DNA of 57,628 bases from Candidatus Micrarchaeota archaeon (GTDB lineage Archaea; Micrarchaeota; Micrarchaeia; Micrarchaeales; CABMGC01), in contig JAGDXY010000005.1 of the NCBI GenBank assembly GCA_023256495.1, forward strand, positions 14,485 through 72,112, in the 5' to 3' direction. Below the pieces are notes generated by a model. It had not been told where the DNA came from. It saw nothing but the letters and a program-made list of their open reading frames with translations, and did no database searches. Position numbers and translations under genes: made by a program. Positions within the stretch are counted from its first letter, which is position 1; each line of letters starts with the position of its first letter. Of this stretch, positions 938 to 32,530 are shown one piece after another.

Positions 938-959
938 ATGATCACCTAAACATTAAAGA

Positions 960-5311: not shown

Positions 5312-5313
5312 CA

Positions 5314-7668: not shown

Positions 7669-7673
7669 ATTAT

Positions 7674-7910
7674 CTATGTTGAATTAGATAGCTGATTTAA
7701 TTGATTATCGATTTGGTTTATTATTGAAGAGTTTCCTGAAGCAAAATGCGGCAAAACTACATCTTTAACTTTTACTATCATTGTTAAAGCTATCAATATT
7801 ACTATGCTTGCTGCTGCTAACATCATTATGTATTCTAATGAACCTTGCGCCTTCTTATATTTGGCTTCTAGAAAAAGTAATCTTATTGTTTCTAGGTACA
7901 TTTTATACAC
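7674..7910 (-). CDS. type IV pilin-like protein with class III signal peptide (78 aa)
   Basis: KKAQGSLEYIMMLAAASIVILIAL matches the archaeal prepilin cleavage pattern (K/R)-x-Q-G|S-L-E-Y followed by a hydrophobic helix. Confidence 0.65.
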   Translation of the reverse strand: MYKMYLETIRLLFLEAKYKKAQGSLEYIMMLAAASIVILIALTMIVKVKDVVLPHFASGNSSIINQIDNQLNQLSNST

Positions 7911-14983: not shown

Positions 14984-16567
14984 ATGGAACAAAAAAGTGC
15001 TAACGATATTTTTAAAGAGTTTAAATCACATTCAATATCAGAATTCTTTAAAAGAAATAGCCAAATGCTAGGCTATGCTGGAAGAGTAAGATCATTGACT
15101 ACAGTAGTACATGAATATGTTACAAATTCATTGGATGCATGTGAAGAAGCAGGGATATTACCAGAGATATTTGTAGAGATTAAAGAAGTTGAAGAGAGTA
15201 AACATCTAGTAACAGTTAGAGATAATGGGCCTGGAATACCTTCGCAGTTTATAGGTAAGGCCCTAGCAAGTATTCTCTCTGGAACAAAATTCCATAGGTA
15301 TCTACAGCAAAGAGGCCAACAAGGAATAGGTGCAAGTGGCTGCACGCTATTTGCGCAGATAACTACAGGCAAAGGGGTGCATGTAGTTTCTAGAACAAGC
15401 TCAGAAAGCTTTGAATGTGATGTTGCAATAGATGTTAACAAAAATGAACCTATTATTACAAACTTTAAGAATATAGAAGGTAATGGTTTTACAGGATTAG
15501 AGATTATTGGATTATTTGGTGAAACAAAATATGAAAATAGCGAAAGAGGTGTATTAGAGTATTTGAAAAGAACAGCATTAGTTAATCCACATGCAAATAT
15601 AACATTAAAAGATCCAGATGGCAAAGAGCATGTTTTTGTAAGAACATCTAATATATTGCCTGAGAGACCAAAAGAGTCAAAGCCACATCCTTTAGGTATA
15701 ACAACAAGCGATTTAATGTATCTAGCGGAGTTAAGTAGTTCTAGATATATATCAACATTTTTAGTAGAATCATTATCTAGAGTAACAAAACAGAAAATCG
15801 ATGAACTAAAAAACTTAATACCTGATATTGATTTAGAAAAATCGCCACATGAATTGACTTGGGAAGAAGGAGAAAAGATAGTTAGAGCTCTAAAGAAAAT
15901 AAAATGGATGGCGCCAGAAACAGATACCTTATCATTAATAGGAAAAGAGCAAATAGAAAAGGCAATAAGTGCTATATTGATGCCAGAATTTGTCTCAACT
16001 ACTCAAAGGAGACCTAGAGTATACATGGGGGGTATACCTTTCGTTGTAGAAGCTGCTATAGCCTATGGCGGTAAAGCAGGTAAAGAAAGGGAAGAATTTA
16101 GGGGTGGTGAGATATTAAGATTTGCAAATAAAGTACCTTTGTTGTTTGATAGCGCAAATTGTGCGATAACAGAAGCAGTTAAAAGTATAGATTGGTCTCG
16201 TTATGGGATAAAGAATTTTGATGAAGAGCCTGTAAGTGTTTTAGTAAACATATCGAGTGTTTATGTGCCTTATTCTGGTGTAGGAAAACAAGCAGTAGCA
16301 GAAGAAGAGGAAATTATAGATGAAATAAAACTAGCTGTTATGGAATGCGCTAGAGATCTACAAAGATATCTTAATGGTGTAAAAAGGAGAAGCGTACAGG
16401 AATCAAAATATAAAACTATAATGAGATATGTTAATCAATTATCAGATGATCTTAGCGCAATTACAAGAGTTAGTAAAGATGAAATAAAAGAAAAATTAAT
16501 ATCAATATTAAAGGAACATTATTCTGGTCTATTTGAAGAAGAGACAAATGAGACTAAAGATAATTAG
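14984..16567 (+). CDS. top6B: DNA topoisomerase VI subunit B
   Basis: SISEFFKRNSQMLGY; GHKL/Bergerat motifs VHEYVTNSLDA and VRDNGPGIP; a transducer region follows. ATG 14984 is preferred over the GTG at 14975. Confidence 0.93.
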   Translation: MEQKSANDIFKEFKSHSISEFFKRNSQMLGYAGRVRSLTTVVHEYVTNSLDACEEAGILPEIFVEIKEVEESKHLVTVRDNGPGIPSQFIGKALASILSGTKFHRYLQQRGQQGIGASGCTLFAQITTGKGVHVVSRTSSESFECDVAIDVNKNEPIITNFKNIEGNGFTGLEIIGLFGETKYENSERGVLEYLKRTALVNPHANITLKDPDGKEHVFVRTSNILPERPKESKPHPLGITTSDLMYLAELSSSRYISTFLVESLSRVTKQKIDELKNLIPDIDLEKSPHELTWEEGEKIVRALKKIKWMAPETDTLSLIGKEQIEKAISAILMPEFVSTTQRRPRVYMGGIPFVVEAAIAYGGKAGKEREEFRGGEILRFANKVPLLFDSANCAITEAVKSIDWSRYGIKNFDEEPVSVLVNISSVYVPYSGVGKQAVAEEEEIIDEIKLAVMECARDLQRYLNGVKRRSVQESKYKTIMRYVNQLSDDLSAITRVSKDEIKEKLISILKEHYSGLFEEETNETKDN

Positions 16568-18794
16568 ATATTTCATTTACAGGGATTATTGTAATTATAT
16601 TTTGATATATGCCAAGTCTTATTATGCTCATATTCGGATCATTGCTTCTATGTATCTCTCTCATAAGCTCATCTGCTACCTCCTGCTTTAATGTAACTAT
16701 AAAGACCTTTTCATTTCCAATAGGTATTGGTTTAAGTTTTTTAGATTCAGATGAATAAATTATTATATAGAATTTTGTATTATTTTTCACAACTTCTATA
16801 TCTGCAATATCGCTCTTATCTAGTTCAGTAAATAACAGAGAATGCGATACGAAATAATCTCTGAGTTTTCTAAATATTACCAAATATTCTGCATCGTGAC
16901 CAGACTCACTTATCCATTGTGTTGGTATATAATAATCTTCTACCTTCTTTACCAGACCCATCGAAACTAATAGATCTAAGTTCTCTTCAAGATTTTTTGT
17001 TGTAGTCGCAAGAGGTAAATTATTATACCTCATAAATGTACTCAATCCATTTTTTATTTCACTTATTGTAAGAGGCATATACTTCCATTTGAACAAGTTG
17101 TTTACTTTACTAAAGACACTCATAAAATCTTCTTTCTTTATATGCACTATAGATGCGTTTGTTTTTGGAAAAGACGGAACATCTATAAAATATTGGTCTA
17201 CAGGAGGATTTCTAAGCATTACATTCAAAAAGACAATTACAATTAACGCTATAAAGAATTCTATATAAAGTGGTGGTATAATAAAGCCTTTTGGAGAAAA
17301 TGTAGAAGAGTAGTTAAAAGTAAAATTGAATATTGTAATTTGAAAGGTTTGATTTCCAGTAGGTATAAATGCGCTTGTTGGCAGCGAATAATATATAATG
17401 CCATTTCTAACAGTACCATTTTGTGTATATTCTTTATTTATGCTAATAGAATAAGATACATTCGATACTGTTTGGCCAGCACTAGATACAAAAAATTCAA
17501 ATGTTTTGTTTGAGAAATTCATTGATATAGGATAAATAGAAACTGGAGCTATGTAAAAAGAACCAACAGTAATTGTCTTATTTGAAAAGTTTTTAACTTC
17601 AGCAATATAAAAACCAGGAGGAAAATTAAATGGAATGTAATCTACTATAGATAAAGATACATTGAAGAATCCTAAGTAAAAATATTTGTATGGCTTATCA
17701 GTTGAATTTATTATTTCTAGACTAAATGTATTAACTGCATTTGACTTATTGAATATAGAAACATAAATTGGCTCTAAAGAAGATAAAGGCACTTCAGCAG
17801 GTATAGATATGTAACCAAGATTTGGCATTGTTGCATGAAATGAAGTTATATATTCATTTTTATTCAATGAATTTCCATAGTTAAAGTACAGAACTACAAA
17901 TACATTGCTTACGTTTTCTGGACTATAATGAATTTTAGAAAATGAAAATAATAAGGAGCTTAAGCCTTTTGATAAAGATAAATTTTGCGAATAAAAACCG
18001 TAATTTTGAATATAAAGGTATCTGTTTACTATAAGATTGCCTATATCATGAGCCATAAGGGTTACATTTGGCCAACTAAAGGTTGGATAATTTGAAAATG
18101 CAATTATCTTACCATTACTTATATTAAAATAGGTAAATTGATTAACATATATAGGGCCTGAGCTACGATTTCCAAAAGCAAATGTCATGTTTCTAAAGTA
18201 ATAGCTAGAGTTTATTTGAATGGAAGCACTATTTATAGGGTAGTATTGTATTTGTGGAAGTTGATCAAGAAGATAAGATGGTGTTACATATATAACACCA
18301 TTAGGACCAACAGTATAATTCAATGCCCTTCCTATATATATTATAGTATCTCCTTTCTTAAATAAAGAATTTAAATAATTAAACATATAGCTTGGCATTA
18401 AACCAGATCCGATTATTATTATTGAGTTATTTGGTGTTAAATTTAGCATATTTGGGTTTATTAATGATGCATTTCTATAACCATGATCTGATAAAAACTT
18501 ATTCAATGAATAAGTAAATGCATATATATTGTAGCAAAATACGCAATACGTTGTGGTATTTAAGACATATATCTGTTTATTAGGATTGCTTAAAAACAGC
18601 TTTGCAGTTAAATTAAGATGTGTTAAATTCATTGTTGAATAATTTAAAAAAACATAAGGTACTAATAAGCTTTTGTTATAAATAGATAAACCATATTTTA
18701 TGTTATTTAATTTAAAATATGGTGCGCCGATAGGTTTGGCGGTAATCTTAATTGAACTAATTGATACATAAATAAAGCTAATTATTAATATCAA
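16554..18794 (-). CDS. 746-aa bitopic surface protein, sequon-rich ectodomain plus cytoplasmic wHTH-like domain
   Basis: N-terminal hydrophobic signal/anchor. A ~500-aa region is dense in N-x-S/T. One internal TM (LYIEFFIALIVIVFLNVML) is followed by a ~210-aa C-terminal domain containing LATTTKNLEENLDLLVSMGLVKKVEDYYIP. Confidence 0.7.
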   Translation of the reverse strand: MILIISFIYVSISSIKITAKPIGAPYFKLNNIKYGLSIYNKSLLVPYVFLNYSTMNLTHLNLTAKLFLSNPNKQIYVLNTTTYCVFCYNIYAFTYSLNKFLSDHGYRNASLINPNMLNLTPNNSIIIIGSGLMPSYMFNYLNSLFKKGDTIIYIGRALNYTVGPNGVIYVTPSYLLDQLPQIQYYPINSASIQINSSYYFRNMTFAFGNRSSGPIYVNQFTYFNISNGKIIAFSNYPTFSWPNVTLMAHDIGNLIVNRYLYIQNYGFYSQNLSLSKGLSSLLFSFSKIHYSPENVSNVFVVLYFNYGNSLNKNEYITSFHATMPNLGYISIPAEVPLSSLEPIYVSIFNKSNAVNTFSLEIINSTDKPYKYFYLGFFNVSLSIVDYIPFNFPPGFYIAEVKNFSNKTITVGSFYIAPVSIYPISMNFSNKTFEFFVSSAGQTVSNVSYSISINKEYTQNGTVRNGIIYYSLPTSAFIPTGNQTFQITIFNFTFNYSSTFSPKGFIIPPLYIEFFIALIVIVFLNVMLRNPPVDQYFIDVPSFPKTNASIVHIKKEDFMSVFSKVNNLFKWKYMPLTISEIKNGLSTFMRYNNLPLATTTKNLEENLDLLVSMGLVKKVEDYYIPTQWISESGHDAEYLVIFRKLRDYFVSHSLLFTELDKSDIADIEVVKNNTKFYIIIYSSESKKLKPIPIGNEKVFIVTLKQEVADELMREIHRSNDPNMSIIRLGIYQNIITIIPVNEISNYL

Positions 18795-18837
18795 TATAAT
18801 AATGAAGAGTATAGCTAATTTATAAATAATTTTAATA

Positions 18838-18984
18838 TTAGCTCACCCCTTTTTTATTTATGTATTTTTCAACTAGATCGCTTACTAATCTAGATAGATA
18901 ATTCTGTTTAACTATTTTGGTTTTTATAGTAAATGCCTTAATGTATCTAAATCTCTTTATTATCTCGGCTCTATAAACAACCAT
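18838..18984 (-). CDS. possible small basic protein (48 aa)
   Basis: Not in the track. Translation is MVVYRAEIIKRFRYIKAFTIKTKIVKQNYLSRLVSDLVEKYINKKGVS. It fills the gap between the 244-aa and 746-aa genes. The strand-helix pattern could be RHH-like, which is weak evidence. Confidence 0.3.
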   Translation of the reverse strand: MVVYRAEIIKRFRYIKAFTIKTKIVKQNYLSRLVSDLVEKYINKKGVS

Positions 18985-18988
18985 AATA

Positions 18989-19723
18989 CTAACCTTTTAT
19001 TTCTAAGTAGCCTAGAGAGACCATTTTATTTAATATCTGCTCTACTCTAGGCATAGGCACGCTATTTGCTTTAGAAAATTCCTCTATATCTATAAGATTA
19101 TTATGTGATTCTAGCCATTCTTCTACCATTATCATAAGAGACTCATCCGAATATTTCAATAAAGCATCTATTTCCTCTTTTAATGATTTGTTTTCATCGC
19201 TTAGCCTAGACGCCTCTATGGTCAAATTTCTATTAGAATTCGCAAGTTCATCTGCAAGCTTCTTAAGCTCAGTATAAGAAGCTAATAGGTATTCATATTT
19301 GCCGAGTAGTTGAGTATAGTCTACATTGAGTGCGCCAAGTAAATTATCTATAGAAGAATCAATGAAAGGAAGCAATTCTTTTAGATCTATAGATATATAA
19401 TCATTTATATACAAAATTAATTCTATAAGATATCTACTAATATTTGCTCTTCTTACTCTTTCGCTAATCTCATGTGGTAATGAGTATGTAATCTTCAACT
19501 CATCCTGTTTAATTGTAAAAATATGAAAGAGATAAGGCTCTTTTTTTATGTTTCTACTTTCAACTTTAGCAAGTGTTATTGTATCATTTGAATAAGAGAA
19601 TAAATAAAGAGGTATTGTACTTAATTTTTTTGATATATCATCTAGAGTAGAATTAATCTTTATTTTTATTGTTAATTCCTCGACCTTCGGATTAAGCGAT
19701 TGTTGCTCTTCCATTTCGCTCAT
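18989..19723 (-). CDS. coiled-coil protein with C-terminal wHTH-like segment (244 aa)
   Basis: Central coiled-coil (LKKLADELANSNRNLTIEASRLSDENKSLKEEIDALL). The C-terminus EEFSKANSVPMPRVEQILNKMVSLGYLEIKG looks like a winged helix. Confidence 0.6.
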   Translation of the reverse strand: MSEMEEQQSLNPKVEELTIKIKINSTLDDISKKLSTIPLYLFSYSNDTITLAKVESRNIKKEPYLFHIFTIKQDELKITYSLPHEISERVRRANISRYLIELILYINDYISIDLKELLPFIDSSIDNLLGALNVDYTQLLGKYEYLLASYTELKKLADELANSNRNLTIEASRLSDENKSLKEEIDALLKYSDESLMIMVEEWLESHNNLIDIEEFSKANSVPMPRVEQILNKMVSLGYLEIKG

Positions 19724-19747
19724 CTATTAATATATAAATAAAGTTAT

Positions 19748-20098
19748 TTATCTTTTTTTATTTAATTTGAGTGCTGGAACCTCAATTAATATTATAATTA
19801 TAAGAAATAATAATCCTAAAATGAGAGATGCCATTATAGAATAAAGACTAGGATATAAAAATAAAGAGAATGAAAAGAACAAGACCCAAAGTATTATATA
19901 CAAATATTCTCTTCTCTTATATCTTTTATATGCTTCTTTATATTTAGGGTAGCATTCTTTGCAAACTACTAGTCTATTGTTTTTTACATTCTTTGTTATA
20001 TGCGTCTTAAACCATTTTATAATGGCTATTTGCAAATCTTCTTCTATTTCTATGCCGTCTCTTTCTCTACCACATATAATGCAATAAGATTTTTGCAT
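19748..20098 (-). CDS. zinc-ribbon protein with C-terminal 2-TM hairpin (116 aa)
   Basis: CIICG...CKEC (CxxC...CxxC), then two hydrophobic helices LYIILWVLFFSFSLFLY and ASLILGLLFLIIIILI. Confidence 0.6.
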   Translation of the reverse strand: MQKSYCIICGRERDGIEIEEDLQIAIIKWFKTHITKNVKNNRLVVCKECYPKYKEAYKRYKRREYLYIILWVLFFSFSLFLYPSLYSIMASLILGLLFLIIIILIEVPALKLNKKR

Positions 20099-20395
20099 TT
20101 ATTCAACCTTTATATCTATAATATTTCCATATAACATCTTTATTTTTTCTTCTTCAAGAAGTGTAATCATATTGCTTATATCAACATCACTAACACCTAT
20201 TCTTCTTAATATAATTCTTATTTGATTATAATTTAAACCATATTTTTGCAATAGGTCTATGAATGTTACTGCATTTATGTGTTTATGCATCTTATCTAAT
20301 TGGCTTATTATCTCTAATATATTCTTATCGCTAATATTAAATAATGATAATATCTTTATAAGCTCTATTTTTTTAACTATAAAAGTTTGAGGCAT
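20099..20395 (-). CDS. small helical protein with two HhH-like repeats (98 aa)
   Basis: Abuts the ATPase stop. Contains DLLQKYGLNYNQIRIIL and ILRRIGVSDVDISNMI, which resemble the C-terminal tail of the upstream ATPase. Confidence 0.55.
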   Translation of the reverse strand: MPQTFIVKKIELIKILSLFNISDKNILEIISQLDKMHKHINAVTFIDLLQKYGLNYNQIRIILRRIGVSDVDISNMITLLEEEKIKMLYGNIIDIKVE

Positions 20396-21925
20396 TTAAA
20401 CACCTAATTGCATAAACATCCTGCTTATTAGGAAATCAGGCATACCGAAGTTCCTTAGTAAGTTTGTTATATTCTCTTTAGATACGCCTATTCCAAGCAA
20501 TGTTGTAGCCAAATCTTTTATATCTACTTCTCTTCCTTTTGCATCTAATGCTTTAAATATAGAATCTATTATATCAGTAGAAAAGTTTATATTTATAAAC
20601 ATCGCTGTAAGATCTGGTTTCTCAAAAATAAATTCTTTTTCAATAGTACCGCTTGCTAGCTCATCGTTTGATAAAATTGAGGTTATATTGAATGAATATG
20701 TATCTAGTGGTACTTCTCCTACCACTTTATTCAACAAGAATGTATCTGGGAATTGTATGTTTGTTTGAAAAGACATGTTAACTGCAGCTTGACCTACTCC
20801 AAATTTGCTTATTTCTCTTCTCATAAACTCAGAGAAATTCAAAGAACCTTGTATATAATCTAAGAATCTTTCAAATCTTACTCTTAATATTATATTAGTT
20901 CCAACATTAGAAAATATAGTTTCATTTATATCTGTAGGATTTTGCGAAGCAACTATAAGACCAAATTGATACTTTCTACCTTCTCTTATAATAGTAATTG
21001 CATCGCTTCTATCATCACTAGCTACTTTCCATGCCTCATCTAATACTACAAATGTCTTTATACCTTTCTCACTGCTCCAACCTTCCATCCTCATTCTCTC
21101 TTTTAATGTTTGTAAAATAAATAATGAAGCAAGAGCCCTAAACTTTTCATCAGGTAAGCCAGATAGATCTATATCAACTAGGCCAGAAGTAGTTAAACTG
21201 CCTATATCAATTGTGCTCTTTCTTGCAAAGAAATCTTCACCTTCTCTAGCAAATTGCCTAAGCCTATAAATTGCATTCTCTAATTCAGCAGGATAAGGAT
21301 AATTACCTTCTTGCAATCTTTCTTGCAATAATGCAATAACATTCTTTAATGTTGGGGCATCTTTATTTTGGTCCGGTCTCTCAGCTAGTCTAAAACCAGC
21401 ATTGAGATATGTTTGCTCTATAGCCTCTTCAGTTAATCTCATCTGCTCAGGAAATTCTGCTATATCAGTTAATATTTGTAATGATGTCATTATCTGCTTA
21501 GTTCTATCCAGAGGTCTCATGCCACCTAAATCCATTATATTAAGATAAGCTCCTTTGCCAAGTTCAACTACAATGCCCCCTGCTTGCTTTACCCACGCTT
21601 TGTATTCGCCTGCCCAATCTATTATTACTGCATTTGTATTCCATATGTAACTTGCTCTTAACAAAAAAGTTTTTACAAAGAAGCTCTTACCTGCTCCGGT
21701 TATACCTACAACACATATATGTGGATTAGTAACATTATATAGACTCCAGGTAAATGGCACACCAAATATTTTTGTATTACCAATATACAAAGCACTTGTT
21801 AAGTCATTTAGTACAAATTGATGAGGTGGTTCAGGGGGTCTACTAAGTATACATCTTTTTCCTAATTCTGTATTCATAACAGTTTGAATCTTAATCAAAC
21901 CCATAATATCACGCTTGCTTAGCAA
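20396..21925 (-). CDS. VirB4/HerA-type (FtsK-HerA superfamily, DUF87-like) P-loop ATPase
   Basis: Walker A GITGAGKS (about 21683..21706), IIDWAGEY, Walker B FVVLDEAWK, and REGRKYQFGLIVASQNPTDI. The C-terminal ~60 aa form an HhH-like tail. Confidence 0.88.
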   Translation of the reverse strand: MLSKRDIMGLIKIQTVMNTELGKRCILSRPPEPPHQFVLNDLTSALYIGNTKIFGVPFTWSLYNVTNPHICVVGITGAGKSFFVKTFLLRASYIWNTNAVIIDWAGEYKAWVKQAGGIVVELGKGAYLNIMDLGGMRPLDRTKQIMTSLQILTDIAEFPEQMRLTEEAIEQTYLNAGFRLAERPDQNKDAPTLKNVIALLQERLQEGNYPYPAELENAIYRLRQFAREGEDFFARKSTIDIGSLTTSGLVDIDLSGLPDEKFRALASLFILQTLKERMRMEGWSSEKGIKTFVVLDEAWKVASDDRSDAITIIREGRKYQFGLIVASQNPTDINETIFSNVGTNIILRVRFERFLDYIQGSLNFSEFMRREISKFGVGQAAVNMSFQTNIQFPDTFLLNKVVGEVPLDTYSFNITSILSNDELASGTIEKEFIFEKPDLTAMFININFSTDIIDSIFKALDAKGREVDIKDLATTLLGIGVSKENITNLLRNFGMPDFLISRMFMQLGV

Positions 21926-22733
21926 ATATTGAAAACAACGTTTCTTTTGGATACACTACAAAATCACTGTTGAATAGATAATATAATTCTCTACCCACTA
22001 CTCTTGTTATTGATACATCAAATATATTAAATGCTACTTGTAATCTATTTAATTTTGCATTTAGATCATCTATAGCACTCTTTTCTGTAACACCATAACC
22101 TATTGTTTCTATATACATTATTGCAGATACTGGCCTTTCCTCTCTAGAAAGCCTCTCAAGTCTTGCACGCATTACGTTTATTTTTCTTTGAAGCTCATCT
22201 ATAGTCTGTTGATTTGGATTTCCAGACATCATTTCTCTATTTAATTGAAACTCATAAAATCCTATCTTGCCTTCTATGTCTTCTCTATATTTTTGCACGT
22301 CTTCTCCAATTGCTATAATATTATATCTAAATGAAAAATCTATATTGCTAACTAAGTTTTCCCACTTATCAACAGATTCCAACATTCTTTCTTCATCAAA
22401 TTCACTTACTTGCTCTGCTGTAAACACATAATTGTATATATTTGCAGTTAAATAACCTATTGCATAATAAATATTGTTAACATACCTTAAAACACAATCT
22501 TGTTTGCTAGGTATTATATAATCCTTGCCAACTATAATTTCCTTATTAAGCAACATAGTGACAACAGGAAAAACAAGAAAATCAGCGTAGTTAATTAAAA
22601 ATATCATTGCAATTCCAAAAATTGCAAGTGCAGATACAATTATTGAAAAAGGACCATAAGCGCCAGCACTGAAAAGTAATATAATAAATGTCAAAGCGCC
22701 AAAACCCAAATATATCATTGTTTCTTGATCCAC
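21909..22733 (-). CDS. 2-TM protein with ~200-aa cytoplasmic domain (274 aa), paralogue-like to 22733..23533
   Basis: Two N-terminal hydrophobic helices are followed by a soluble domain with a coiled-coil (IDELQRKINVMRARLERLS). It overlaps the ATPase start by 17 nt. Confidence 0.65.
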   Translation of the reverse strand: MDQETMIYLGFGALTFIILLFSAGAYGPFSIIVSALAIFGIAMIFLINYADFLVFPVVTMLLNKEIIVGKDYIIPSKQDCVLRYVNNIYYAIGYLTANIYNYVFTAEQVSEFDEERMLESVDKWENLVSNIDFSFRYNIIAIGEDVQKYREDIEGKIGFYEFQLNREMMSGNPNQQTIDELQRKINVMRARLERLSREERPVSAIMYIETIGYGVTEKSAIDDLNAKLNRLQVAFNIFDVSITRVVGRELYYLFNSDFVVYPKETLFSIFAKQA

Positions 22734-23533: not shown

Positions 23534-23565
23534 TAATCTTTTTTATACTTTTAAATTTAAAAAGA

Positions 23566-24639: not shown

Positions 24640-25715
24640 ATTAATCTCACCAACGCATCTACGAGATTTACCTTTTCTCCTACTGCATTTGACATATCTA
24701 AAATAAATATGTTAACAATAGTTATATTTAATATTGGAAACAAAATAGTACCGATTCCTATAGCCATAAATAAATTTATTAGCTTGATAATTTCTATAGT
24801 TGCTATAGAAGTAGATAATAATGTAATAGATATGCCAAAGATTGAAAGAAAACTAAGAATAGAGCTAAAAAGTAAAGAAGCTAAACCAATAAAAGGCAAT
24901 ATAAAAAGTGATACTAAAGAGATAAATATTATATAAAATAATATCGTATTACTTTCTATAAACGATGTAATAGGTCCATAAGTAAGAATAGTTATAATTG
25001 GATAAAATATTCCTATACCTATACCCATTACTATCAAGGTATTGCCAAAAGTCCTACTTACAAGAAATATTCTAGCCAATAATCCAAGACCAACAAATAT
25101 TAACAATAACATAAATGAGCTTGCTAACATATATTCTTGCATTACATTTAGAATAGCAAGAGTGTAAAGAAAAGTAATGAGGGGGCTTATAAAACCGATA
25201 AATGAAAAAGGAAATTCTACGCTAAAACTTAGACCCACACCTTTCATTATGCTTATACCTATATTAAATGATGGGATAAGATCTATAACGAGCATCGCAT
25301 AATAAAATAAACCCATATAATCATTGAAATAAGAATTAAATGTATGCATAATACATGTAGAGATGGAATTAATAGTAGTTGAACCATAATTTGAATTAAG
25401 ATTGCTCGTGCTTGTACATTGTTGTGGCACATAGTTATTAAGATATGATGGTGAGGTATTGTTAATATTTGTATAAAAATCTATAAAAAAATTGAATAGC
25501 AAAACAAAGACTATAGTCAAGAGCACATCATATATCTTTTGATTAAGCCATATATGCATATTAGTTAGCCCTAAGAATTTGCTTAAAGCAAATAATATAC
25601 CTATTATAGATAAAATTGCCAATGAAGTTAAACCAACTAATGCAAATATAGCTGTTTCTATATTATTTAAAATTTGACTTTCAACTTGTAGTAATATTAA
25701 ATTTATAATCATCAT
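24636..25715 (-). CDS. polytopic membrane protein, paralogue P5 (359 aa)
   Basis: Degenerate signature LARIFLVSRTFGNTLIVMGIGIGIFYP; the C-terminus ends ...ALVRLI. ATGA overlaps at both ends. Confidence 0.75.
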   Translation of the reverse strand: MMIINLILLQVESQILNNIETAIFALVGLTSLAILSIIGILFALSKFLGLTNMHIWLNQKIYDVLLTIVFVLLFNFFIDFYTNINNTSPSYLNNYVPQQCTSTSNLNSNYGSTTINSISTCIMHTFNSYFNDYMGLFYYAMLVIDLIPSFNIGISIMKGVGLSFSVEFPFSFIGFISPLITFLYTLAILNVMQEYMLASSFMLLLIFVGLGLLARIFLVSRTFGNTLIVMGIGIGIFYPIITILTYGPITSFIESNTILFYIIFISLVSLFILPFIGLASLLFSSILSFLSIFGISITLLSTSIATIEIIKLINLFMAIGIGTILFPILNITIVNIFILDMSNAVGEKVNLVDALVRLI

Positions 25716-27070
25716 ATTATCCTACCTAACAAACCCTCTCTACTTAATGAAGGTGCACCGAGTAGATCACCCAATATCTCTAATAACTCATAAGATATTA
25801 TAAATGCTACTGCTAAACCCAATATCTCAGCAACAAAATAAAAGAAAAAACTGATAAATACACCAAGAAGTTGAATTGTAAGAGAGAATAATGAACTAAA
25901 AATCGAGATAAATCCGATAAAAGGAAGAAGATATGAAAACAATGAAATTACCATATTTACTATAATGTTATGAAAACCAGAAGCAGTCGTAGTAGGAATT
26001 ATAACAGTTGTAAGTCTAAGATCAATTTTATTAAGTATTAAAATAAGACTATAAAGCAAAGCAGGGAAAAAGAAATAAATAGAGATAAATGCAGCTATCA
26101 TAGCACCACCTGCAGCTCTAGTCCAAGGAAAAGATCTAAAAACAACGCCAATTAAGAAGAGAATAGGAAATACTTGATATATTATTATAGAGAGAAATGC
26201 AGTTGCAAGCATTAATCCAATAACCCAAATCATAGTATTTATCATAAAACTGATTGTTGTAATTAAAACTGACAAATTAAAAATTGTAAAACTGAATCCA
26301 GGTATAAGTGGTATTAGAACAAAGCCACCAAGAGAAACTAAATTTAGACCATATGGAGCAAGTGAAATACTAAGTGAGTTAATTATATCAAACAAGAATT
26401 TTATAGCAAGAAGTTCAGCATAGAGTCCTATAGAATTGCCAAGATTAGAAATACTTTCTCCACATAATGCAGTAAAGAGTGCTTTATCAGAACTAAATGA
26501 ATTTACTTGTGTGTTTGTTGCATATCCAATAAACTGCGCTATGCCACTAACAATAGAAGGCATGGAGGTAAATAAGAATAATACAAAAATAATAAGTATA
26601 AGATTGAAGATTTGTTCAACGTATTCTGCTTTAGAAAATTGAACTAATTTTGAAAAATTAAAACCAATACCTATTGCATATGCTAAGCCAACTACACTAA
26701 GAACCATTAACGATATTAAAAATGCAATAGATAAAATAGAAGATATATAAGAACTTTTGAGTTGAGGAACTATTCTCTGATTCATCAAAGTACTGCAAAA
26801 CTCATTTTGAATAGAATTAAAATTACCGCTTGGTGAGATTACTATTTGGCCATTTATTGCTGTCGTAGTTGAAGCTGAAGTTGTAGAAGCCGTTGAAGAC
26901 GAAATGCTAGATGTTGAAACAGATATTGGAATTGTTGTAGTTATAGATGTTGTTGGCCTTGGTGAGATAGGTACTCTATATTGCATAGGATAAAAATAGC
27001 TGAGCAAAAAGACATTGTATAATATTAATAAAATAAATGATGGTTCAAAAAGATATTTTTTGTAGTTCAT
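25712..27070 (-). CDS. polytopic membrane protein, paralogue P4 (452 aa)
   Basis: Signature VFRSFPWTRAAGGAMIAAFISIYFFFP. An N-terminal S/T-rich tract reads TTSITTTIPISVSTSSISSSTASTTSASTTT. The C-terminus ends ...LLGRII. Confidence 0.75.
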   Translation of the reverse strand: MNYKKYLFEPSFILLILYNVFLLSYFYPMQYRVPISPRPTTSITTTIPISVSTSSISSSTASTTSASTTTAINGQIVISPSGNFNSIQNEFCSTLMNQRIVPQLKSSYISSILSIAFLISLMVLSVVGLAYAIGIGFNFSKLVQFSKAEYVEQIFNLILIIFVLFLFTSMPSIVSGIAQFIGYATNTQVNSFSSDKALFTALCGESISNLGNSIGLYAELLAIKFLFDIINSLSISLAPYGLNLVSLGGFVLIPLIPGFSFTIFNLSVLITTISFMINTMIWVIGLMLATAFLSIIIYQVFPILFLIGVVFRSFPWTRAAGGAMIAAFISIYFFFPALLYSLILILNKIDLRLTTVIIPTTTASGFHNIIVNMVISLFSYLLPFIGFISIFSSLFSLTIQLLGVFISFFFYFVAEILGLAVAFIISYELLEILGDLLGAPSLSREGLLGRII

Positions 27071-28428
27071 ATTAATCTACTCAAAGGTCCAAGATTTGTC
27101 TCACCGCCTATTAAAGATGATATTCCAATAGATCCGGATATTGTTAAAATAATGTTAAATAAAGGTATTAATAAACCCGCTATTGCTGTATAGCCATATG
27201 CATGAGCCAATGTAAATACAGTATTTAAAGCGTTTTCAGGTCCACAACCACTAATTATTATACCCCCAAATGTATTAACTAAATTTACTACAGAAAATAG
27301 TGCAGTTAATGGAAACGTAACTGGAAGAAGAAATGTAGCTGCATCTTTCACCTCCTCAAGCAATAAGTTACCGTCAATAGGCCAACAACCATAATAATTC
27401 TCTATTTGTGTATCATTTGGTAATATAAACATATTAATAGCATTAAATGTATAGATATTATTAGTATTAACCTGTTTTTGATATATAGTCATAGAAGGTA
27501 GAGAATTTGCGCCTATTGGAGAAAGTTGATTGTTACTAAAACTTACAAATTCTATCATATAAGTAAGAGGTAATATAGAGATTAGACCAATTGCAAATCC
27601 TATAAATAAGCCACCAATCCTTCTAAATACAGGCAAAGAACGTAAGAATATGCCAACACCAAGTAAAAATGGCCATATATAAACTATTGCCCCTAATAAA
27701 ATTAATTCAGCAATCAATAAGTAGTTCATCAAAATTGCTTGTACTATTATTGGTTTTAACATTGTATCTAACAATGAGTATCCAGCAAACACCCTCTCTC
27801 TAGCCGTAATAAATATGTCTGCCTGAGACTCTAGACCTTGAATTTCACATGTTTCACCTATACATAATGCAAACGTTGGAGTTAATTGTGAAAAGAAACT
27901 AACTAAGCCACTAAAGATATAAAGTGCATTGAAGTTGTTCATTTCTTGGTTTGTCACATTTGCCACTATAAAATAAGTAGTAGCTAATCCGTAATCTATT
28001 GCAGCAGTTGAAGGATCTGGTACATTACCATTTGGATTAATTATAGATTCCATTGCAATAAATTCATTACTTGTTTGATTTATTAAACCGAAAGGAGAAT
28101 TCGATAGATATTGGATGAAATACTCATTTATCTGACTTGGTGAAAGTATAGATGAAAATACCTTTGATAAGATAGAACTTATAAACCAGGTAGTTATTAT
28201 TATAATTATAAGAGTATATAATAACTGATAATACTCTAAACGTGCTATATTTTTTATCTTTGAGCTGTTTGCTATTGCCCCTATAATATATACTATAGAT
28301 ATAACTAGTAAACCAGTAATAACACCTAATATTGCTATAGGAATCCAAGAACTAACTACGCTATAACTAGTAATCAAATTCTGCGTTTGAAAGAGCAAAT
28401 ATTCAGCTCCAAAAGCCACTTGGAACAC
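27067..28428 (-). CDS. polytopic membrane protein, paralogue P3 (453 aa)
   Basis: Signature FLRSLPVFRRIGGLFIGFAIGLISILP; the C-terminus ends ...PLSRLI. It overlaps the 3' end of P2 by 26 nt. Confidence 0.75.
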   Translation of the reverse strand: MFQVAFGAEYLLFQTQNLITSYSVVSSWIPIAILGVITGLLVISIVYIIGAIANSSKIKNIARLEYYQLLYTLIIIIITTWFISSILSKVFSSILSPSQINEYFIQYLSNSPFGLINQTSNEFIAMESIINPNGNVPDPSTAAIDYGLATTYFIVANVTNQEMNNFNALYIFSGLVSFFSQLTPTFALCIGETCEIQGLESQADIFITARERVFAGYSLLDTMLKPIIVQAILMNYLLIAELILLGAIVYIWPFLLGVGIFLRSLPVFRRIGGLFIGFAIGLISILPLTYMIEFVSFSNNQLSPIGANSLPSMTIYQKQVNTNNIYTFNAINMFILPNDTQIENYYGCWPIDGNLLLEEVKDAATFLLPVTFPLTALFSVVNLVNTFGGIIISGCGPENALNTVFTLAHAYGYTAIAGLLIPLFNIILTISGSIGISSLIGGETNLGPLSRLI

Positions 28429-29524
28429 CCAATATAGATGGTATAGAGTTTAGGCCTTTATAAATGCCATAGGCAAGTGCTAAAGTAAACATAAAATCTA
28501 TTGCAATTAAAAATATTCCTTCAAAATAAAATACTCCTAAAAGATATGAAAGTTCATACAATATGTTTGGTGGATCAGTTAATGCAGTTAATAATGTTTT
28601 AAGATTGAAGAAACTAAAGAAACCTAATATATCATTAAATATATTCGGCAGTTGGGTTATATTTTGATTAAAAATAGAGTTGAATGTAAAGTCTAGCTCA
28701 TGCGAACTTGCTAGATATACATCAAATGAATCAATATTTTGCATTATATAAGCATCCATTATTATAGTCAAAGGAAGTATAAAATAAAATGCAATAGATA
28801 TAGCTATAAATGCATTTGCAGTATCCCTAAGCTTATTTCCCAAAAATGCAAAAGCTCTTATTATAAGTGCTACAGGTAAAACAAAATTTAATGCTAATGC
28901 CTCTATAACAAACATAATTAAGAGCAATATGAATAATACACCCATTGGTATTATAGCCAAAAACCCGAATACATCGCTTAATAAAACACCATAAATACCA
29001 ATCAAGGCAGCAACCGGCTTTCCTATTGAAAGGCCTACTGAAGCAAATGCTACAGAAGCACTACGAGTAGAAGAAAAAAGAAGGGCTGAATAATAATCGA
29101 GTATTATACCTGCAGCATATAGATTAAAAGAATCCGCAAAAATCTTTACTACTAAATATGTGCCTTGTTGAAACACCATTTGTGACAGATAATATGTTGA
29201 AAATGAAAACGGATTATTGAATCCAAAAGAGCTTGATATCTGTGAACCTATACTACATCCTATAATAGAGAATGAAAATATAGCTGATATTAAAATAATT
29301 CCAAAAACAGCTGTAGCAAACTCGATTTTTGTTATTCCGCTTATCTTTTCTCTTTGCTGTGCTGGGAAAAATCTACCAATTGTATATATAATAGAAGCAA
29401 GCATAAGAGAAAAAAGTATTACCAATATATTTATGTTCACCCAACCTATAGATTGGCTAATGTATTGAAAGCTAGTGCAATAGGTATTTGCATAGATTGT
29501 CTGGAATAATATTGGCATTAGCAT
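28403..29524 (-). CDS. polytopic membrane protein, divergent paralogue P2 (373 aa)
   Basis: Same position and architecture as its neighbours. The signature is degenerate: IIRAFAFLGNKLRDTANAFIAISIAFYFILP. Confidence 0.7.
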   Translation of the reverse strand: MLMPILFQTIYANTYCTSFQYISQSIGWVNINILVILFSLMLASIIYTIGRFFPAQQREKISGITKIEFATAVFGIILISAIFSFSIIGCSIGSQISSSFGFNNPFSFSTYYLSQMVFQQGTYLVVKIFADSFNLYAAGIILDYYSALLFSSTRSASVAFASVGLSIGKPVAALIGIYGVLLSDVFGFLAIIPMGVLFILLLIMFVIEALALNFVLPVALIIRAFAFLGNKLRDTANAFIAISIAFYFILPLTIIMDAYIMQNIDSFDVYLASSHELDFTFNSIFNQNITQLPNIFNDILGFFSFFNLKTLLTALTDPPNILYELSYLLGVFYFEGIFLIAIDFMFTLALAYGIYKGLNSIPSILGVPSGFWS

Positions 29525-29525
29525 A

Positions 29526-30779
29526 TCAAATACCCAATTTTCTTGTTATAGTAGGGCTTATTCCACTTGAACTGCCTAACAACTTTGCTATGTCATTAGT
29601 TAATGAGAGACCTATCACTAGATCTATGATATAAAGTATATATTGTACTATTATATAAACACCATTTCCTATTGGAGCTATCGATATGCCCTGGGCTTGT
29701 GATTGAGTAATAAGGAAGTGATTAAAGAACGGGAATATGCTATTTATTGAAGAAAATGCAAGAAAAATATCTTGAAACGCAGAAATAGAACTGACTAACA
29801 AAGTAACAAGTTGCACTAATAAGTCACTGGCAAATCCATTGGTATTACCTAAATTAACTGTGCTTATACTATAAAATTGCATAGCAATATTTGATATTGG
29901 CGCATTTAAAAAGATTAATAAAGATGGATATATTAAACTTATTCCAATTCCTATACCTATTAGTGTACCGCCTAATGGCCTTAATATAGGAAACGATCTA
30001 AATGCAATGCCTATAGGTATAAAAAGTATTAAGCCCAAAAACATTATAAAATCTAAGAATTTATACTGCAATAAGAATAGTAAAAAGGTATAAAAAGCAA
30101 TGAAATATGTATCAACAATTATAGAATAATTACGCGAAAATATAAAAGAAGTAGTAAGAGATCCAAATACCTCACTATTAAAGAAACTAGATTTGAAACC
30201 CCAATCTACACCAATCGTTACAAATTCTGCTAAGACTGCTACACCTGCATCAGCATCTATAGTAAAAGATCTTAGAAATCCAGAGGCTATTGTAAATATG
30301 TAAAGAAAATAAAGGCTTTGCTCTGTTAGTTCACACCCTTGTTGCAAGTAGTTTGTTCTTACGATATTAGCAAATGCTTCTACCATATTATTAAAATTTA
30401 CCGTATTTGTTTGTGTTGATGCTTGACTTGTTTGTGTTTGTAATGATGTTGTTGTTTGAGCTATATTAACAAGTATAGATGTAATGAACAGAATGATAGA
30501 ATAGATGCTTGCTAGTATTATAAGAGATTTGATTAATTCCCATGATTCATTTTGTGTGACCCACTGCCTTAAACCTATATTTGGAAAAATTGTACCTATC
30601 ATGTAGCCTAAAGCCATTATGGCTAAAGAAAGCATAATACCTATTAAGCCAAGAGATATTGCATTTGTAGTGTTTATAGGAAAAGATAATGTATTAAAAG
30701 AAGTGCAAGGATCAGTATATGTTTGAGCATGCAAAGTAAACAATAACAATAATAATAACAATATGTAAGTATTTTTCAT
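29526..30779 (-). CDS. polytopic membrane protein, paralogue P1 (417 aa)
   Basis: Signal-like N-terminus MKNTYILLLLLLLFTLHAQ followed by Cys. Has a Q/T/S tract QTTTSLQTQTSQASTQTNT. Signature is AFRSFPILRPLGGTLIGIGIGISLIYP. Confidence 0.75.
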   Translation of the reverse strand: MKNTYILLLLLLLFTLHAQTYTDPCTSFNTLSFPINTTNAISLGLIGIMLSLAIMALGYMIGTIFPNIGLRQWVTQNESWELIKSLIILASIYSIILFITSILVNIAQTTTSLQTQTSQASTQTNTVNFNNMVEAFANIVRTNYLQQGCELTEQSLYFLYIFTIASGFLRSFTIDADAGVAVLAEFVTIGVDWGFKSSFFNSEVFGSLTTSFIFSRNYSIIVDTYFIAFYTFLLFLLQYKFLDFIMFLGLILFIPIGIAFRSFPILRPLGGTLIGIGIGISLIYPSLLIFLNAPISNIAMQFYSISTVNLGNTNGFASDLLVQLVTLLVSSISAFQDIFLAFSSINSIFPFFNHFLITQSQAQGISIAPIGNGVYIIVQYILYIIDLVIGLSLTNDIAKLLGSSSGISPTITRKLGI

Positions 30780-30839
30780 ACTATTAAAAATTTGATTAAT
30801 TAACTTATTTAACTTTTCTCTTAATAAAATTTTTATAAT

Positions 30840-31547
30840 TTATAATTTTCTCAATATAGGATATGCTCTTATGTATGCTAATGCTATAAATATAATGAGA
30901 TATGGTAATAAGAATAAAGAAGTTATAATTAATAATATATATTCACCAATCTCGTTTGGTAAGAGCGTAGTTAGTATTGAATCAAATAATAACAAAGAGA
31001 TTAATGCTATAAATAACCATAAAACGAAATAATAAAAGCCATAGCTGCTTTTTATGTATCTTATGTTATCTATTATTGCTCCTTTTATAGACCTATCTTT
31101 TAGTATTATAGAGGCAGGAGAGTAGAATATAAAGATAAATAAAATTAATGCAACTAAATCGCTAAGCAAATGTGAAACTAAATAAGATGCGATGAAAATT
31201 ATATAGAATATAAAGAATAGTATAAAAACCCTTATTGTATATGATTCTATATTTCTAAGGTCCCTTTTCCCAATCTTTGTCTTTGTTTTGATTGATTTAA
31301 CTATCATCACTATTAAAACAAATGCCAAACTAAACAAAGTAAGAGAAAACAAAAAAGAGATTACAATAGATAATATTATTATTGGAGTTAAATCAAAGGA
31401 TCTTATAAAAATACCACCTAAAGCTATAAATGATGGAAGAGGAAAAGCCAATGGAATCAATAATGATATGAAGAATGCTAATGAAAATATTGATACTAAC
31501 TTTATATTCGCTAGATACAATAAAATGCTCTCTTTTAATATGTTCAT
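30840..31547 (-). CDS. polytopic membrane protein (235 aa, about 6 hydrophobic helices by eye)
   Basis: Its ATG directly follows the TAG stop of the MoxR gene. Almost entirely hydrophobic. The segment GGIFIRSFDL weakly echoes the FRSxP signature. Confidence 0.65.
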   Translation of the reverse strand: MNILKESILLYLANIKLVSIFSLAFFISLLIPLAFPLPSFIALGGIFIRSFDLTPIIILSIVISFLFSLTLFSLAFVLIVMIVKSIKTKTKIGKRDLRNIESYTIRVFILFFIFYIIFIASYLVSHLLSDLVALILFIFIFYSPASIILKDRSIKGAIIDNIRYIKSSYGFYYFVLWLFIALISLLLFDSILTTLLPNEIGEYILLIITSLFLLPYLIIFIALAYIRAYPILRKL

Positions 31548-32459
31548 CTAATCAACCGATGCTAAAATACCATCTATAATACCACTAACTCCTATACCAC
31601 CTGTAGCTCTTGTCACTATTCTATGGCTTAGAACTGGTTTTGCTAAGAATGTGACATCATCTTTAATTACTTTGTTTCTTCCTTCTATTAATGCCTTTGC
31701 TTTTGCGCAATTTACTAAAGCAATAATTGCTCTAGGGCTAGCACCCATTACAACATGTATATCGCTTCTTGTGGCATCTACAATCCTAATTATATAATTT
31801 GCTATATCATCATCTAATGATACATTCTTTACCATAGACTGCAAGCTTAGTATTGTCTCTATATCAACTACTTTATTTATCTCTAGTTGTGTATCTTTTT
31901 CCTTTAACCTTATCATCTCTATCTCTTCGTTCTCTGATGGATAGTCTACATTAATCTTCATAATAAACCTATCTGCAAGTACTTTTGGCAATGGTTCTGT
32001 TCCTTCAATATTTAATGGGTTTTGTGTAGCAAATGCAATGAATAGATCAGGTAATTTATAATTTATACCACCTATAGTAACTACTCTCTCTTCTAGCATT
32101 TCTAGAAAGGCGCTCATTGTCTTTGGTGGCGTTCTGTTTAGCTCATCAAGCAAAAGCAAGTTTGTAAATATTGGTCCTTTATGAACTTTTAGGTTGTTGT
32201 CACTAGGGTCTATGTAGGTATAGCCCACTATATCTTGAGGAGTTAAATCAGATGTACCTTGTATTCTCTTAAAATCTGCATTTATAGCACTAGCAAGAGA
32301 TTTTACCATTGTTGTTTTTGCTACACCAGGCACACCCTCTAGCAAAACATGCCCATTTGCAACTAAACCAATAAACATAAGCTTTATTACATCTTCTTTT
32401 CCTGCAATCTTCTTTTTAACCTCTTTTAATACTAAATTATAAACTTCTTGTGGCTCCAA
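31548..32459 (-). CDS. MoxR-family AAA+ ATPase
   Basis: HVLLEGVPGVAKT (Walker A), FKRIQGTSDLTPQDIVG, LLLLDELNRTPPKT (Walker B) and ATQNPLNIEGTEPLPKVLADRF. Confidence 0.9.
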   Translation of the reverse strand: MEPQEVYNLVLKEVKKKIAGKEDVIKLMFIGLVANGHVLLEGVPGVAKTTMVKSLASAINADFKRIQGTSDLTPQDIVGYTYIDPSDNNLKVHKGPIFTNLLLLDELNRTPPKTMSAFLEMLEERVVTIGGINYKLPDLFIAFATQNPLNIEGTEPLPKVLADRFIMKINVDYPSENEEIEMIRLKEKDTQLEINKVVDIETILSLQSMVKNVSLDDDIANYIIRIVDATRSDIHVVMGASPRAIIALVNCAKAKALIEGRNKVIKDDVTFLAKPVLSHRIVTRATGGIGVSGIIDGILASVD

Positions 32460-32530
32460 GGGTTATCACTATTAAAAATTTGAACGAAAGGTTTTAAATC
32501 TATTACTTAACTAATTATATTAAGAGCTCT

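Follow-up and report, generated by a model that had tools for sequence, protein, structure and literature searches.

The 57,628-nucleotide (nt) stretch of Candidatus Micrarchaeota archaeon DNA analysed here (assembly GCA_023256495.1, contig JAGDXY010000005.1, positions 14,485 to 72,112; hereafter the window) carries a cluster of 16 genes, g1 to g15 plus a small g14b, at window positions 16554-32459. We read this cluster as a chromosomal, vertically inherited envelope translocon of the Ced/type IV secretion lineage that has undergone a Micrarchaeota-specific expansion and whose function by analogy would be the import of nucleic acid; the probability of this reading as a whole is put at about 0.6. 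Its parts differ in strength: descent from the lineage of Ced and the type IV secretion systems (T4SS) is very probable, while the assignment to nucleic-acid import is tentative and drawn from analogy. The central components are a motor ATPase (g11), two proteins resembling the N-terminal module of such a motor (g9 and g10), and six related polytopic membrane proteins (g3-g8) that are probably homologous to the CedA channel.

The cluster comprises 15 open reading frames (ORFs) of at least 50 amino acids (aa), all on the minus strand, and a sixteenth of 48 aa that fills the sole larger gap in the gene train. An earlier note, made from the sequence alone, had counted the same 16 ORFs on one strand, and the junctions it cited are all correct (31547/31548; ATGA overlaps at 27067, 25712 and 24636; abutting genes at 20395/20396 and 20098/20099). 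In transcription order from g1 to g15 the intergenic distances are 0, 60, 1, -26, -4, -4, -4, 32, -1, -17, 0, 0, 24, 4 and 43 nt. The seven polytopic proteins that the note had put at roughly 2,600 codons amount to 2646 codons in a transmembrane (TM) scan. Archaeal housekeeping genes flank the cluster, with topoisomerase VI subunit B (Topo VI-B) and a KH/Dim2-like gene on one side and RpoF/Rpb4, DUF655 and Pelota on the other. The window is AT-rich (about 29% guanine plus cytosine, GC), with an even base composition throughout, and is a Micrarchaeota (DPANN) chromosome.

The putative motor, g11 (20396-21925), is a P-loop ATPase of the VirB4/CedB/HerA clade with 509 aa as listed; translation probably begins at the ATG at 21904, which leaves 502 aa. 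The protein consists of a motor domain followed by a helical tail of about 95 aa, with intact Walker A (GITGAGKS) and Walker B (FVVLDE) motifs. It matches the Pfam families DUF87 (1e-15), AAA_10 (3e-13) and TraG P-loop (2e-9) as well as the NCBIfam models CedD (4e-20, 71.8 bits), CD1110 VirB4-like (3e-17), CedB (1e-16, 60.7 bits), TraC (1e-15) and HerA (2e-14), in line with the VirB4/HerA-type identity first proposed for it. On these profile matches, g11 is to be classed as a homologue of the CedB/CedD clade and not as an equivalog. The relationship to bacterial VirB4 is likewise one at the superfamily level only (TIGR00929 at 46.2 bits and E 1.9e-12, below the cut-off of 643 bits; the VirB4 structure 4ag5 of the Protein Data Bank (PDB) matching residues 65-335 with E 1.7e-8). 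Across Micrarchaeota the identity of g11 is 62-72%. A search returned at least 1068 homologues, the best 120 of them 64-72% identical, and nearly all homologues with a source name are called Micrarchaeota or Micrarchaeia. Relatives outside this group fall into two tiers, namely proteins of about 500 aa carrying the same tail, and proteins of 813-983 aa, 30-35% identical, with about 280 residues ahead of the motor.

The gene following g11, g12 (20099-20395, 98 aa), is a free duplicate of the last 95 or so residues of g11: a hidden Markov model (HMM) of g12 matches the C-terminal tails of g11-type ATPases (E 4e-21 to 3e-6), and the protein aligns with g11 residues 416-509 at 26% identity. A helix-hairpin-helix in g12 and the g11 tail was considered and dropped in favour of a helical repeat, for which no fold matched convincingly; against PDB sequences g12 matched only designed helical repeats and EF-hand proteins. 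Two g11 orthologues from other metagenomes (P0261, 1196 aa; P0262, 1026 aa) contain long insertions with Hint/LAGLIDADG-like features that read as inteins, one just past the Walker A motif (GSGKS) and the other just ahead of Walker B. Inteins favour highly conserved, essential genes.

Upstream of the motor, g9 (22733-23533, 266 aa) and g10 (21909-22733, 274 aa) each have an N-terminal two-helix hairpin followed by a further domain, cytoplasmic in g9, and are paralogues of each other (hhalign 97.2%; percentages given for hhalign are probabilities). Against the N-terminal 300 aa taken from 21 fused CedB-like ATPases, g9 reaches 95.3% (E 2e-8, 240 columns) and g10 93.2% (E 3e-7), with a reversed-alignment control at 0.5%; HMM matches for g9 have E-values of 1e-7 to 3e-3. 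An AlphaFold2 model of g10 (predicted local distance difference test, pLDDT, 81.8) has TrwK/VirB4 of R388 as its top, though weak, Foldseek matches in the PDB (probability 0.84). No recurrent CagE/TrbE match was found for 62 members of the g10 family against Pfam at E up to 10, and the family profile gave nothing significant against PDB sequences. Judged by these comparisons, g9 and g10 are two paralogous copies of a module, consisting of a membrane hairpin and an N-terminal domain, that is fused to the motor in related systems. Since g9 and g10 match the N-termini of the fused ATPases, the two proteins together with g11 can be regarded as a split version of a CedB or VirB3-VirB4-type protein. 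The pair of 2-TM proteins described earlier thus does carry hairpins, but the hairpins belong to a detached N-terminal module of the ATPase and do not represent VirB3 alone.

The six polytopic proteins g3-g8 form a series whose orthologue families are all mutually homologous in profile-profile comparison (hhalign 96-99.4%). It consists of g3 (29526-30779, 417 aa, motif FRSFPILRPLGG; 98-99% against the other paralogue families), g4 (28403-29524, 373 aa, the most divergent of the six; 96-98% to g3 and g5-g8), g5 (27067-28428, 453 aa, motif FLRSLPVFRRIGG; 96-99%), g6 (25712-27070, 452 aa, with a Ser/Thr-rich N-terminal extension and the motif VFRSFPWTRAAGG; 97-99%), g7 (24636-25715, 359 aa; 97-99%) and g8 (23566-24639, 357 aa, the best conserved, with orthologues 31-43% identical). 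A loop motif, F-R-S-x-P-x-x-R-x-x-G-G ... P, recurs among the paralogues together with a C-terminal LGG; in g8 orthologues C25, W36, Y37 and C38 as well as R230, P234, R236, G239 and G240 are invariant. We note that a family of 39-nt direct repeats (23897-23935, 27587-27625 and 29944-29982) lies within the DNA for the GG..IG.GIG motif in three of the paralogues; it reflects their common descent at the nucleotide level and is not a regulatory repeat.

The g3-g8 superfamily aligns with a CedA-like family, which itself matches the CedA model NF041796 at 6e-23, over nearly the full length and with motifs aligned (hhalign 85.1%, E 6e-6, 255 columns). Both carry the motif PFR..R..G..L.A..I....P and a C-terminal LGG. 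The value increases to 88.5% (E 3e-6) when the homologue from a compact relative, described below, is added; reversed alignments reach at most 0.3% and unrelated TM families at most 1.7%. By these comparisons, g3-g8 represent six anciently duplicated members of a single polytopic family, which is single-copy in the compact relative and probably homologous to CedA, a VirB6-like channel. The link from CedA to VirB6 has been drawn by others (PMC9905601).

The CedA-like family derives from gene modules with a fused ATPase of about 880 aa (L083-L110, GC 40-54%), and these ATPases are the nearest detectable outgroup of g11. The proteins of 813-983 aa match the NCBIfam CedB model over positions 14-587 of 590 (E 1e-34 to 1e-36). 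Among the genes upstream of them, one of 84 aa matches CedA1 (9e-16) and one of 291 aa matches CedA (6e-23), both with precomputed Pfam annotation as PF27251 CedA1. A further 25 loci have a constant module of a secreted protein, a CedA1-like protein, a CedA-like protein, a 2-TM gene of about 62 aa and the fused ATPase, with a tyrosine integrase nearby in five of the 25. The N-terminal 260 aa of the fused ATPases are homologous to g9/g10, and their polytopic neighbour of about 295 aa is the best match of the g3-g8 superfamily. Unlike the window cluster, these modules have every part in single copy, stand in a mobile-element context (some beside integrases), and possess an ATPase that is fused and ends in a putative winged helix-turn-helix (wHTH) and nuclease-like domain without counterpart in the window. 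By eye, the C-terminal 200 or so residues of seven of the fused ATPases (P0297, P0298, P0303, P0313, P0325, P0333 and P0410) read as a winged helix and then a putative PD-(D/E)xK-like motif (GG..H...V... D.V.D..IA.EVE); such a protein would combine a CedB-like motor anchored in the membrane with a nuclease-like domain of its own.

The compact, ancestor-like relative (L114; positions 1-6043, Logan SRR22388139) adjoins an archaeal pheT gene and, with 59% GC, represents a high-GC archaeon. Its gene order is a 5-TM protein, a two-helix (pilin-like) protein of 81 aa, a polytopic protein of 323 aa, a single g9/g10-like protein, the ATPase and a g14 homologue. The 323-aa channel gene belongs to the g3-g8 superfamily (HMM 2e-32, hhalign 98.8%), the g9/g10-like protein is matched at 3e-26, and the ATPase is 43% identical to g11; the membrane proteins gave no match to the NCBIfam Ced models. 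Since channel and N-terminal domain are each encoded by a single gene at this locus, the duplications to six and to two copies are taken as expansions on the Micrarchaeota line.

Inheritance was examined in a one-genome-per-species collection, in which 105 stretches encode a g11 relative; 80 of these were kept, one per species, including the cultivated ARM-1. The genes g2-g15 are colinear and on the same strand in most of the 80 loci long enough to show the order, which bears out the earlier suggestion of a functionally important, non-mobile cluster. Topo VI-B follows g15 directly and convergently at 57 of 57 loci, and the chromosomal position between RpoF/DUF655 and Topo VI-B is fixed across dozens of species. 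The median identity of Topo VI-B is 59% compared to about 65% for g11, hence the conservation of g11 equals or exceeds that of a core replication gene. In four fuller contexts (L081 and L111-L113) the outer flanks are the same, and the paralogues always number exactly six. A single operon, as first proposed, is plausible in this genome, but elsewhere the cluster is broken at g8|g9, at g10|g11 (ARM-1 and L006) or at g13|g14, and it is therefore better described as linked modules than as one obligatory transcription unit. Three contigs labelled 'Candidatus Acidiferrales bacterium' or 'Marsarchaeota' (L053, DATLRT010000039.1; L003; L045) contain the full Micrarchaeota-type cluster with a g11 that is 64-69% identical, and are probably mis-binned or mis-named Micrarchaeota.

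These observations bear on the possibility that the cluster is the remnant of an integrated conjugative element or provirus instead of a cellular system. HerA/VirB4-type ATPases are common in archaeal mobile elements (PMC4158269), the nearest outgroup of g11 resides in small modules beside tyrosine integrases at five loci, and PHROGs include one family, of unknown function, with a match to g11 (7e-23). Yet Pfam scans found no integrase or replication gene among the cluster proteins, direct repeats resembling att sites around the cluster amount to chance-level AT-rich matches and the paralogue motif itself, and g11 has no relative among the viral contigs of IMG/VR. With the position fixed, the GC content even, and g11 as conserved as Topo VI-B, a present-day mobile element is effectively refuted and the explanation scarcely tenable, although an ancient origin from such an element is likely. 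The fixed place beside Topo VI-B, the conserved order, and the lack of integrase, att repeats and viral relatives together indicate vertical inheritance.

A different cellular explanation is a HerA-type module for DNA repair or anti-virus defence. The ATPase does match the HerA, DndH and mad8 models of PADLOC and HerA structures in the PDB, but the HerA matches span only the shared P-loop core, and the VirB4 and CedB models cover more of the domain. Neither NurA, Mre11, Rad50, Sir2, DUF4297 nor a similar partner nuclease, effector or defence protein was found with PADLOC and Pfam, where only the ATPase core matches, and no other cluster gene matches PADLOC. A repair or defence role would also fit poorly with over 2600 codons of membrane protein that has Ced-like relatives, and we consider this explanation very improbable. 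The same holds for its variant, a MoxR-chaperoned membrane complex unrelated to transport, which is prompted by the MoxR gene abutting the cluster. This gene, g1 (31548-32459, 303 aa), is indeed a MoxR-type AAA+ ATPase, as first named (Pfam AAA_3 7e-49, AAA_lid_2 4e-18), with intact Walker A (GVPGVAKT) and Walker B (LLLLDE) motifs. A VWA or DUF58 partner is absent from the cluster and its immediate flanks. The gene heads the cluster in the window, L112 and L113, but not in L081 and L111, and is located elsewhere in L064 (at the cluster head in only three of the five lineages examined). While two unrelated, intact ATPases accompany the membrane proteins here, the earlier emphasis on MoxR was overstated: g1 is probably co-transcribed with the cluster in this genome, but it is a variable neighbour, neither a conserved member nor part of the core.

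The remaining genes, g2 and g13-g15, are conserved partners unique to this system. The 7-TM protein g2 (30840-31547, 235 aa, TM scan) is always directly upstream of the six paralogues, has orthologues of 31-41% identity, and is without relative in Pfam, NCBIfam or the PDB. A role as seventh channel paralogue was ruled out (hhalign 0.2-0.6%); g2 is unrelated to g3-g8 and to the CedA-like proteins. The small protein g13 (19748-20098, 116 aa) combines a cytoplasmic zinc ribbon (CIIC and CKEC) with a C-terminal TM hairpin; it is present at 76 of the 80 loci, and its four cysteines are kept in 63-71 of 71 orthologues. The soluble g14 (18989-19723, 244 aa) has a ZapB-like coiled coil (weak match) and a C-terminal winged helix, with weak or faint precomputed CdvB_HTH matches among its orthologues, E 0.27 against the CdvB winged helix in PDB 2xvc, and a homologue in the compact relative (E 1e-29). 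The matches suggest a resemblance to the protein-binding winged helix of CdvB. Next to it, the basic ORF g14b (18838-18984, 48 aa) corresponds to a gene of 47-51 aa at the same place in L081 and L111-L113. Of the DNA-binding-like accessory proteins proposed initially, the zinc ribbon of g13 stands; DNA binding is unproven, the helix-hairpin-helix was not demonstrated, the winged helix of g14 resembles that of CdvB and g12 is a copy of the ATPase tail.

The cluster ends with g15 (16554-18794, 746 aa), a bitopic surface protein with a hydrophobic N-terminus, a sequon-rich ectodomain of about 500 aa, one TM segment near residue 501 and a predicted cytoplasmic tail of about 220 aa, the most conserved part of the protein. 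As described before, it is rich in sequons: 31 N-X-S/T sites compare with 11.6 +/- 3.3 in shuffled sequences, and 28 of the 31 are located in the ectodomain. It has no relative in Pfam or the PDB, and family profiles of g2, g14 and g15 gave nothing significant against PDB sequences. Neither the g15 tail nor g14 corresponds to the wHTH and nuclease-like C-terminus of the fused ATPases (hhalign at most 0.8%). Overall, g2-g10 and g12-g15 have no family match in Pfam, NCBIfam, PHROGs or PADLOC.

In several Micrarchaeota the cluster head has additional genes, namely one or two of about 120 aa (with a signal peptide, a cysteine, two hydrophobic helices and a C-terminal cysteine) and a polytopic one of about 600 aa. 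The 120-aa protein (p120) resembles the N-terminus of the channel family with 83% in one hhalign run and 49% and 74% in others. CedA1 has been related to the N-terminus of CedA (PMC9905601), and the two families compare at 96.8% here; as the likeness of p120 mirrors this relationship, p120 is a likely pilin. It shows no similarity to the CedA1-like family itself (0.1-0.2%), and the 600-aa protein was ruled out as a seventh channel paralogue (0.2-0.6%). Comparing window positions 32459-32531 with positions 900-3300 of L112/L113, the p120 and 600-aa genes that normally lie between MoxR and g2 have been lost or moved here, and MoxR abuts g2. No homologue of the 600-aa gene occurs anywhere in the 57-kb window. 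Since the locus also lacks the pilin-like gene of its relatives, the system may function with no pilus at all or draw on a pilin whose gene lies elsewhere.

This part of the evidence touches on a further explanation, according to which the same Ced/T4SS-derived hardware serves as a surface-structure or protein-secretion and adhesion machine, building a conjugative-type pilus or presenting and secreting host-attachment factors and moving no nucleic acid. T4SS commonly secrete proteins and build pili (PMC12857230), and relatives of the cluster carry one or two pilin-like genes at its head. The large surface protein g15 is, by its sequons, predicted to be heavily glycosylated, the winged helix of g14 resembles a protein-binding one, and the cluster contains no confirmed domain for DNA binding or processing. 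On the other hand, the characterised archaeal homologues (Ced, Ted and conjugative plasmids) all move DNA (PMC9905601, PMC11868833, PMC12857230), the closest relatives outside Micrarchaeota point to DNA with their wHTH and PD-(D/E)xK-like C-terminus, as read from sequence, and in part with neighbouring integrases, and the window locus is without a pilin gene yet keeps every other part. A secretion or adhesion machine is therefore rather unlikely.

Several results weigh against a Ced/T4SS-derived importer. All NCBIfam scores of g11 are far under the curated cut-offs, 60-72 bits for CedB and CedD compared to 600-700 bits required by these equivalog models (NF041017 700, NF053655 600). The channel link stays at 85-88%, under the usual 95% comfort level for hhalign; g3 and g8 have no direct match to the NCBIfam CedA and CedE models, g3-g8 have no match in Pfam, TrbL/VirB6 included, and their orthologues carry no precomputed CedA1 match. 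A g8 profile found nothing among PDB sequences. The AlphaFold2 model of g8 is all-helical (pLDDT 76.6), and Foldseek gave neither a VirB6 nor another fold (best E 0.29, template modelling score below 0.27). The VirB4 fold matches of g10 have an E-value of 0.13, the membrane genes of ARM-1 and L006 are not adjacent to the ATPase, and the 57-kb window has no homologue of either the CedA1-like or the p120 pilin-like family. For g12-g15, neither a nuclease nor a relaxase nor a clear DNA-binding domain could be confirmed, and the data reveal neither what is transported nor in which direction.

With these points taken into account, the translocon would most likely import DNA or another nucleic acid, an assignment based only on the analogy with Ced, Ted and archaeal conjugation (PMC9905601, PMC11868833, PMC12857230) and on the host dependence of the organism. 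In the proposed mechanism, g9/g10 would tether a g11 hexamer at the membrane, where it would dock beneath a hetero-oligomeric channel that the six CedA-like paralogues build, perhaps with one copy apiece; g15, with its glycosylated ectodomain and conserved cytoplasmic tail, and g14 would couple cell-surface contact to the motor. A more specific version is doubtful: a pseudo-six-fold, hetero-hexameric port assembled from the six paralogues would fit the g11 hexamer, and with g15 as surface receptor the symbiont would use it to dock to its host and take up DNA, RNA or other macromolecules as food. Cryo-electron tomography (cryo-ET) of ARM-1 revealed an unidentified barrel of about 21 nm in the symbiont envelope where host nanotubes dock (PMC11329633), and the cluster is, speculatively, one candidate for it. 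If the docking port were real, a conjugation-derived machine would have been repurposed as a feeding organ of DPANN archaea, paralleling a proposal for the T4SS of Patescibacteria.

The routes by which DPANN archaea acquire DNA, nucleotides, lipids and proteins from their hosts have yet to be settled, and contact structures seen by cryo-ET have no assigned genes. A cluster that is conserved like a core replication gene across the sampled Micrarchaeota, and is of DNA-transfer descent, provides a defined gene set for the two cultivated systems, Candidatus Micrarchaeum harzensis and ARM-1, and a concrete candidate for the exchange of macromolecules between symbiont and host. With this cluster the Ced/Ted family, until now described from Crenarchaea, reaches into DPANN. 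For the evolution of such machines it amounts to a natural experiment, in which the motor has been separated from its anchor and the channel duplicated to six copies, and a compact relative with single copies is at hand for comparison.

About 6 kb from the cluster, positions 5458-10353 on the minus strand look like a type IV filament locus. A T2SSE-type ATPase (8923-10353, Pfam 1.4e-18) comes first, then a pair of small proteins with 3-4 TM segments (8435-8938 and 7903-8454), and after these two ORFs whose N-termini resemble archaeal prepilins (7339-7668 and 5736-6950). The Ced system of Sulfolobales requires Ups type IV pili for cell contact. Beside this locus, a tRNA-His (5081-5153, minus strand) neighbours a 112-nt tRNA on the plus strand (5200-5311), presumably intron-containing, since it is found by Rfam and missed by ARAGORN; a 98-aa ORF overlapping both tRNAs (5018-5314) is probably spurious.

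Among known systems, the closest in kind is Ced of the Sulfolobales, consisting of CedA, CedA1, CedA2, CedB, CedD and CedE. Ced is induced by DNA damage. Like the window cluster, it is chromosomal and without relaxase or coupling protein, and both combine a VirB4/HerA-clade ATPase with a module of TM segment and N-terminal domain, here on the separate polypeptides g9 and g10. A polytopic channel of the CedA type belongs to Ced and probably also to the cluster, and its N-terminus shows a relationship to a small two-helix pilin (here the pilin-like protein of relatives). Ced imports DNA and gained the paralogues CedD and CedE, whose N-terminal domains match parts of the VirB4 N-terminal domain, and the gain of paralogues of the ATPase module and of the channel, here a probable one, is a further shared feature (PMC11868833). 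It has been proposed that the VirB4-like N-terminal domains of CedB and CedD complement one another (PMC11868833). In contrast to the one or two channel paralogues of Ced there are six here, and instead of the full-length CedB and CedD there is one motor, g11, and two N-terminal-domain proteins without ATPase. No window protein reaches the NCBIfam Ced cut-offs, g2, g12, g13, g14, g14b and g15 have no Ced counterpart, and the organisms are DPANN symbionts, not free-living Crenarchaea. Ced and Ted are considered domesticated T4SS (PMC9905601).

Ted of the Thermoproteales and archaeal conjugative plasmids (pNOB8-type and pT33-3) share with the cluster the minimal logic of VirB4, a VirB6-like channel and pilin, set in a monoderm cell enclosed by an S-layer; a relaxase is not recognisable in any of them (PMC9905601, PMC12857230). 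The pilins and channels of Ted are unrelated in sequence even to Ced, and a direct sequence link to the cluster was neither sought nor found; the plasmids additionally carry a VirD4-like protein. The inner-membrane complex of bacterial T4SS (VirB3-VirB4-VirB6-VirB8, as in R388 and the monoderm MPF-FATA class) has a motor of the same superfamily as g11, and hairpin, N-terminal domain and motor correspond to the layout of a VirB3-VirB4 fusion. VirB6/TrbL could be tied to g3-g8 only through CedA, and the cluster is without VirB8, VirB1, VirD4 and relaxase. None of the 15 larger proteins matched a VirD4 coupling protein or relaxase, g11 showing only a weak P-loop overlap with TrwB/FtsK; the lack of relaxase, coupling protein and integrase reported initially is thereby borne out, and such a lack is normal for Ced/Ted systems. 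Epibiotic Patescibacteria (candidate phyla radiation) offer a functional parallel only, with a near-universal, chromosomally fixed VirB4-based system without relaxase in an ultra-small, host-dependent lineage (PMC12102498), for which a role in host feeding has been proposed (bioRxiv 10.64898/2026.06.21.733656). That system is bacterial, of MPF-FATA descent and with other accessory genes, and the homology proposed extends to the ATPase superfamily only.

We found no description of the cluster in the literature on Micrarchaeota and DPANN with VirB4, HerA, Ced, gene clusters or nanotubes, a literature whose coverage is incomplete, so that this is absence of evidence only; neither is it described in the papers on the ARM-1 genome and cryo-ET, Micrarchaeum harzensis, archaeal dark matter, the 2025 T4SS nomenclature or the Patescibacteria T4SS. 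The relatives that the earlier note had named as nearest analogies, VirB3/VirB4/VirB6 and CedA/CedB, are exactly the right ones, but as true, if remote, homologues instead of mere analogies. Its claim of an undescribed machine accordingly holds for the composition, which no described system has, and gives way in part where profile matches place the ATPase and the paralogues in the Ced/T4SS family: the cluster matches no described system in composition and is still of the Ced/T4SS kind, not a categorically new machine.

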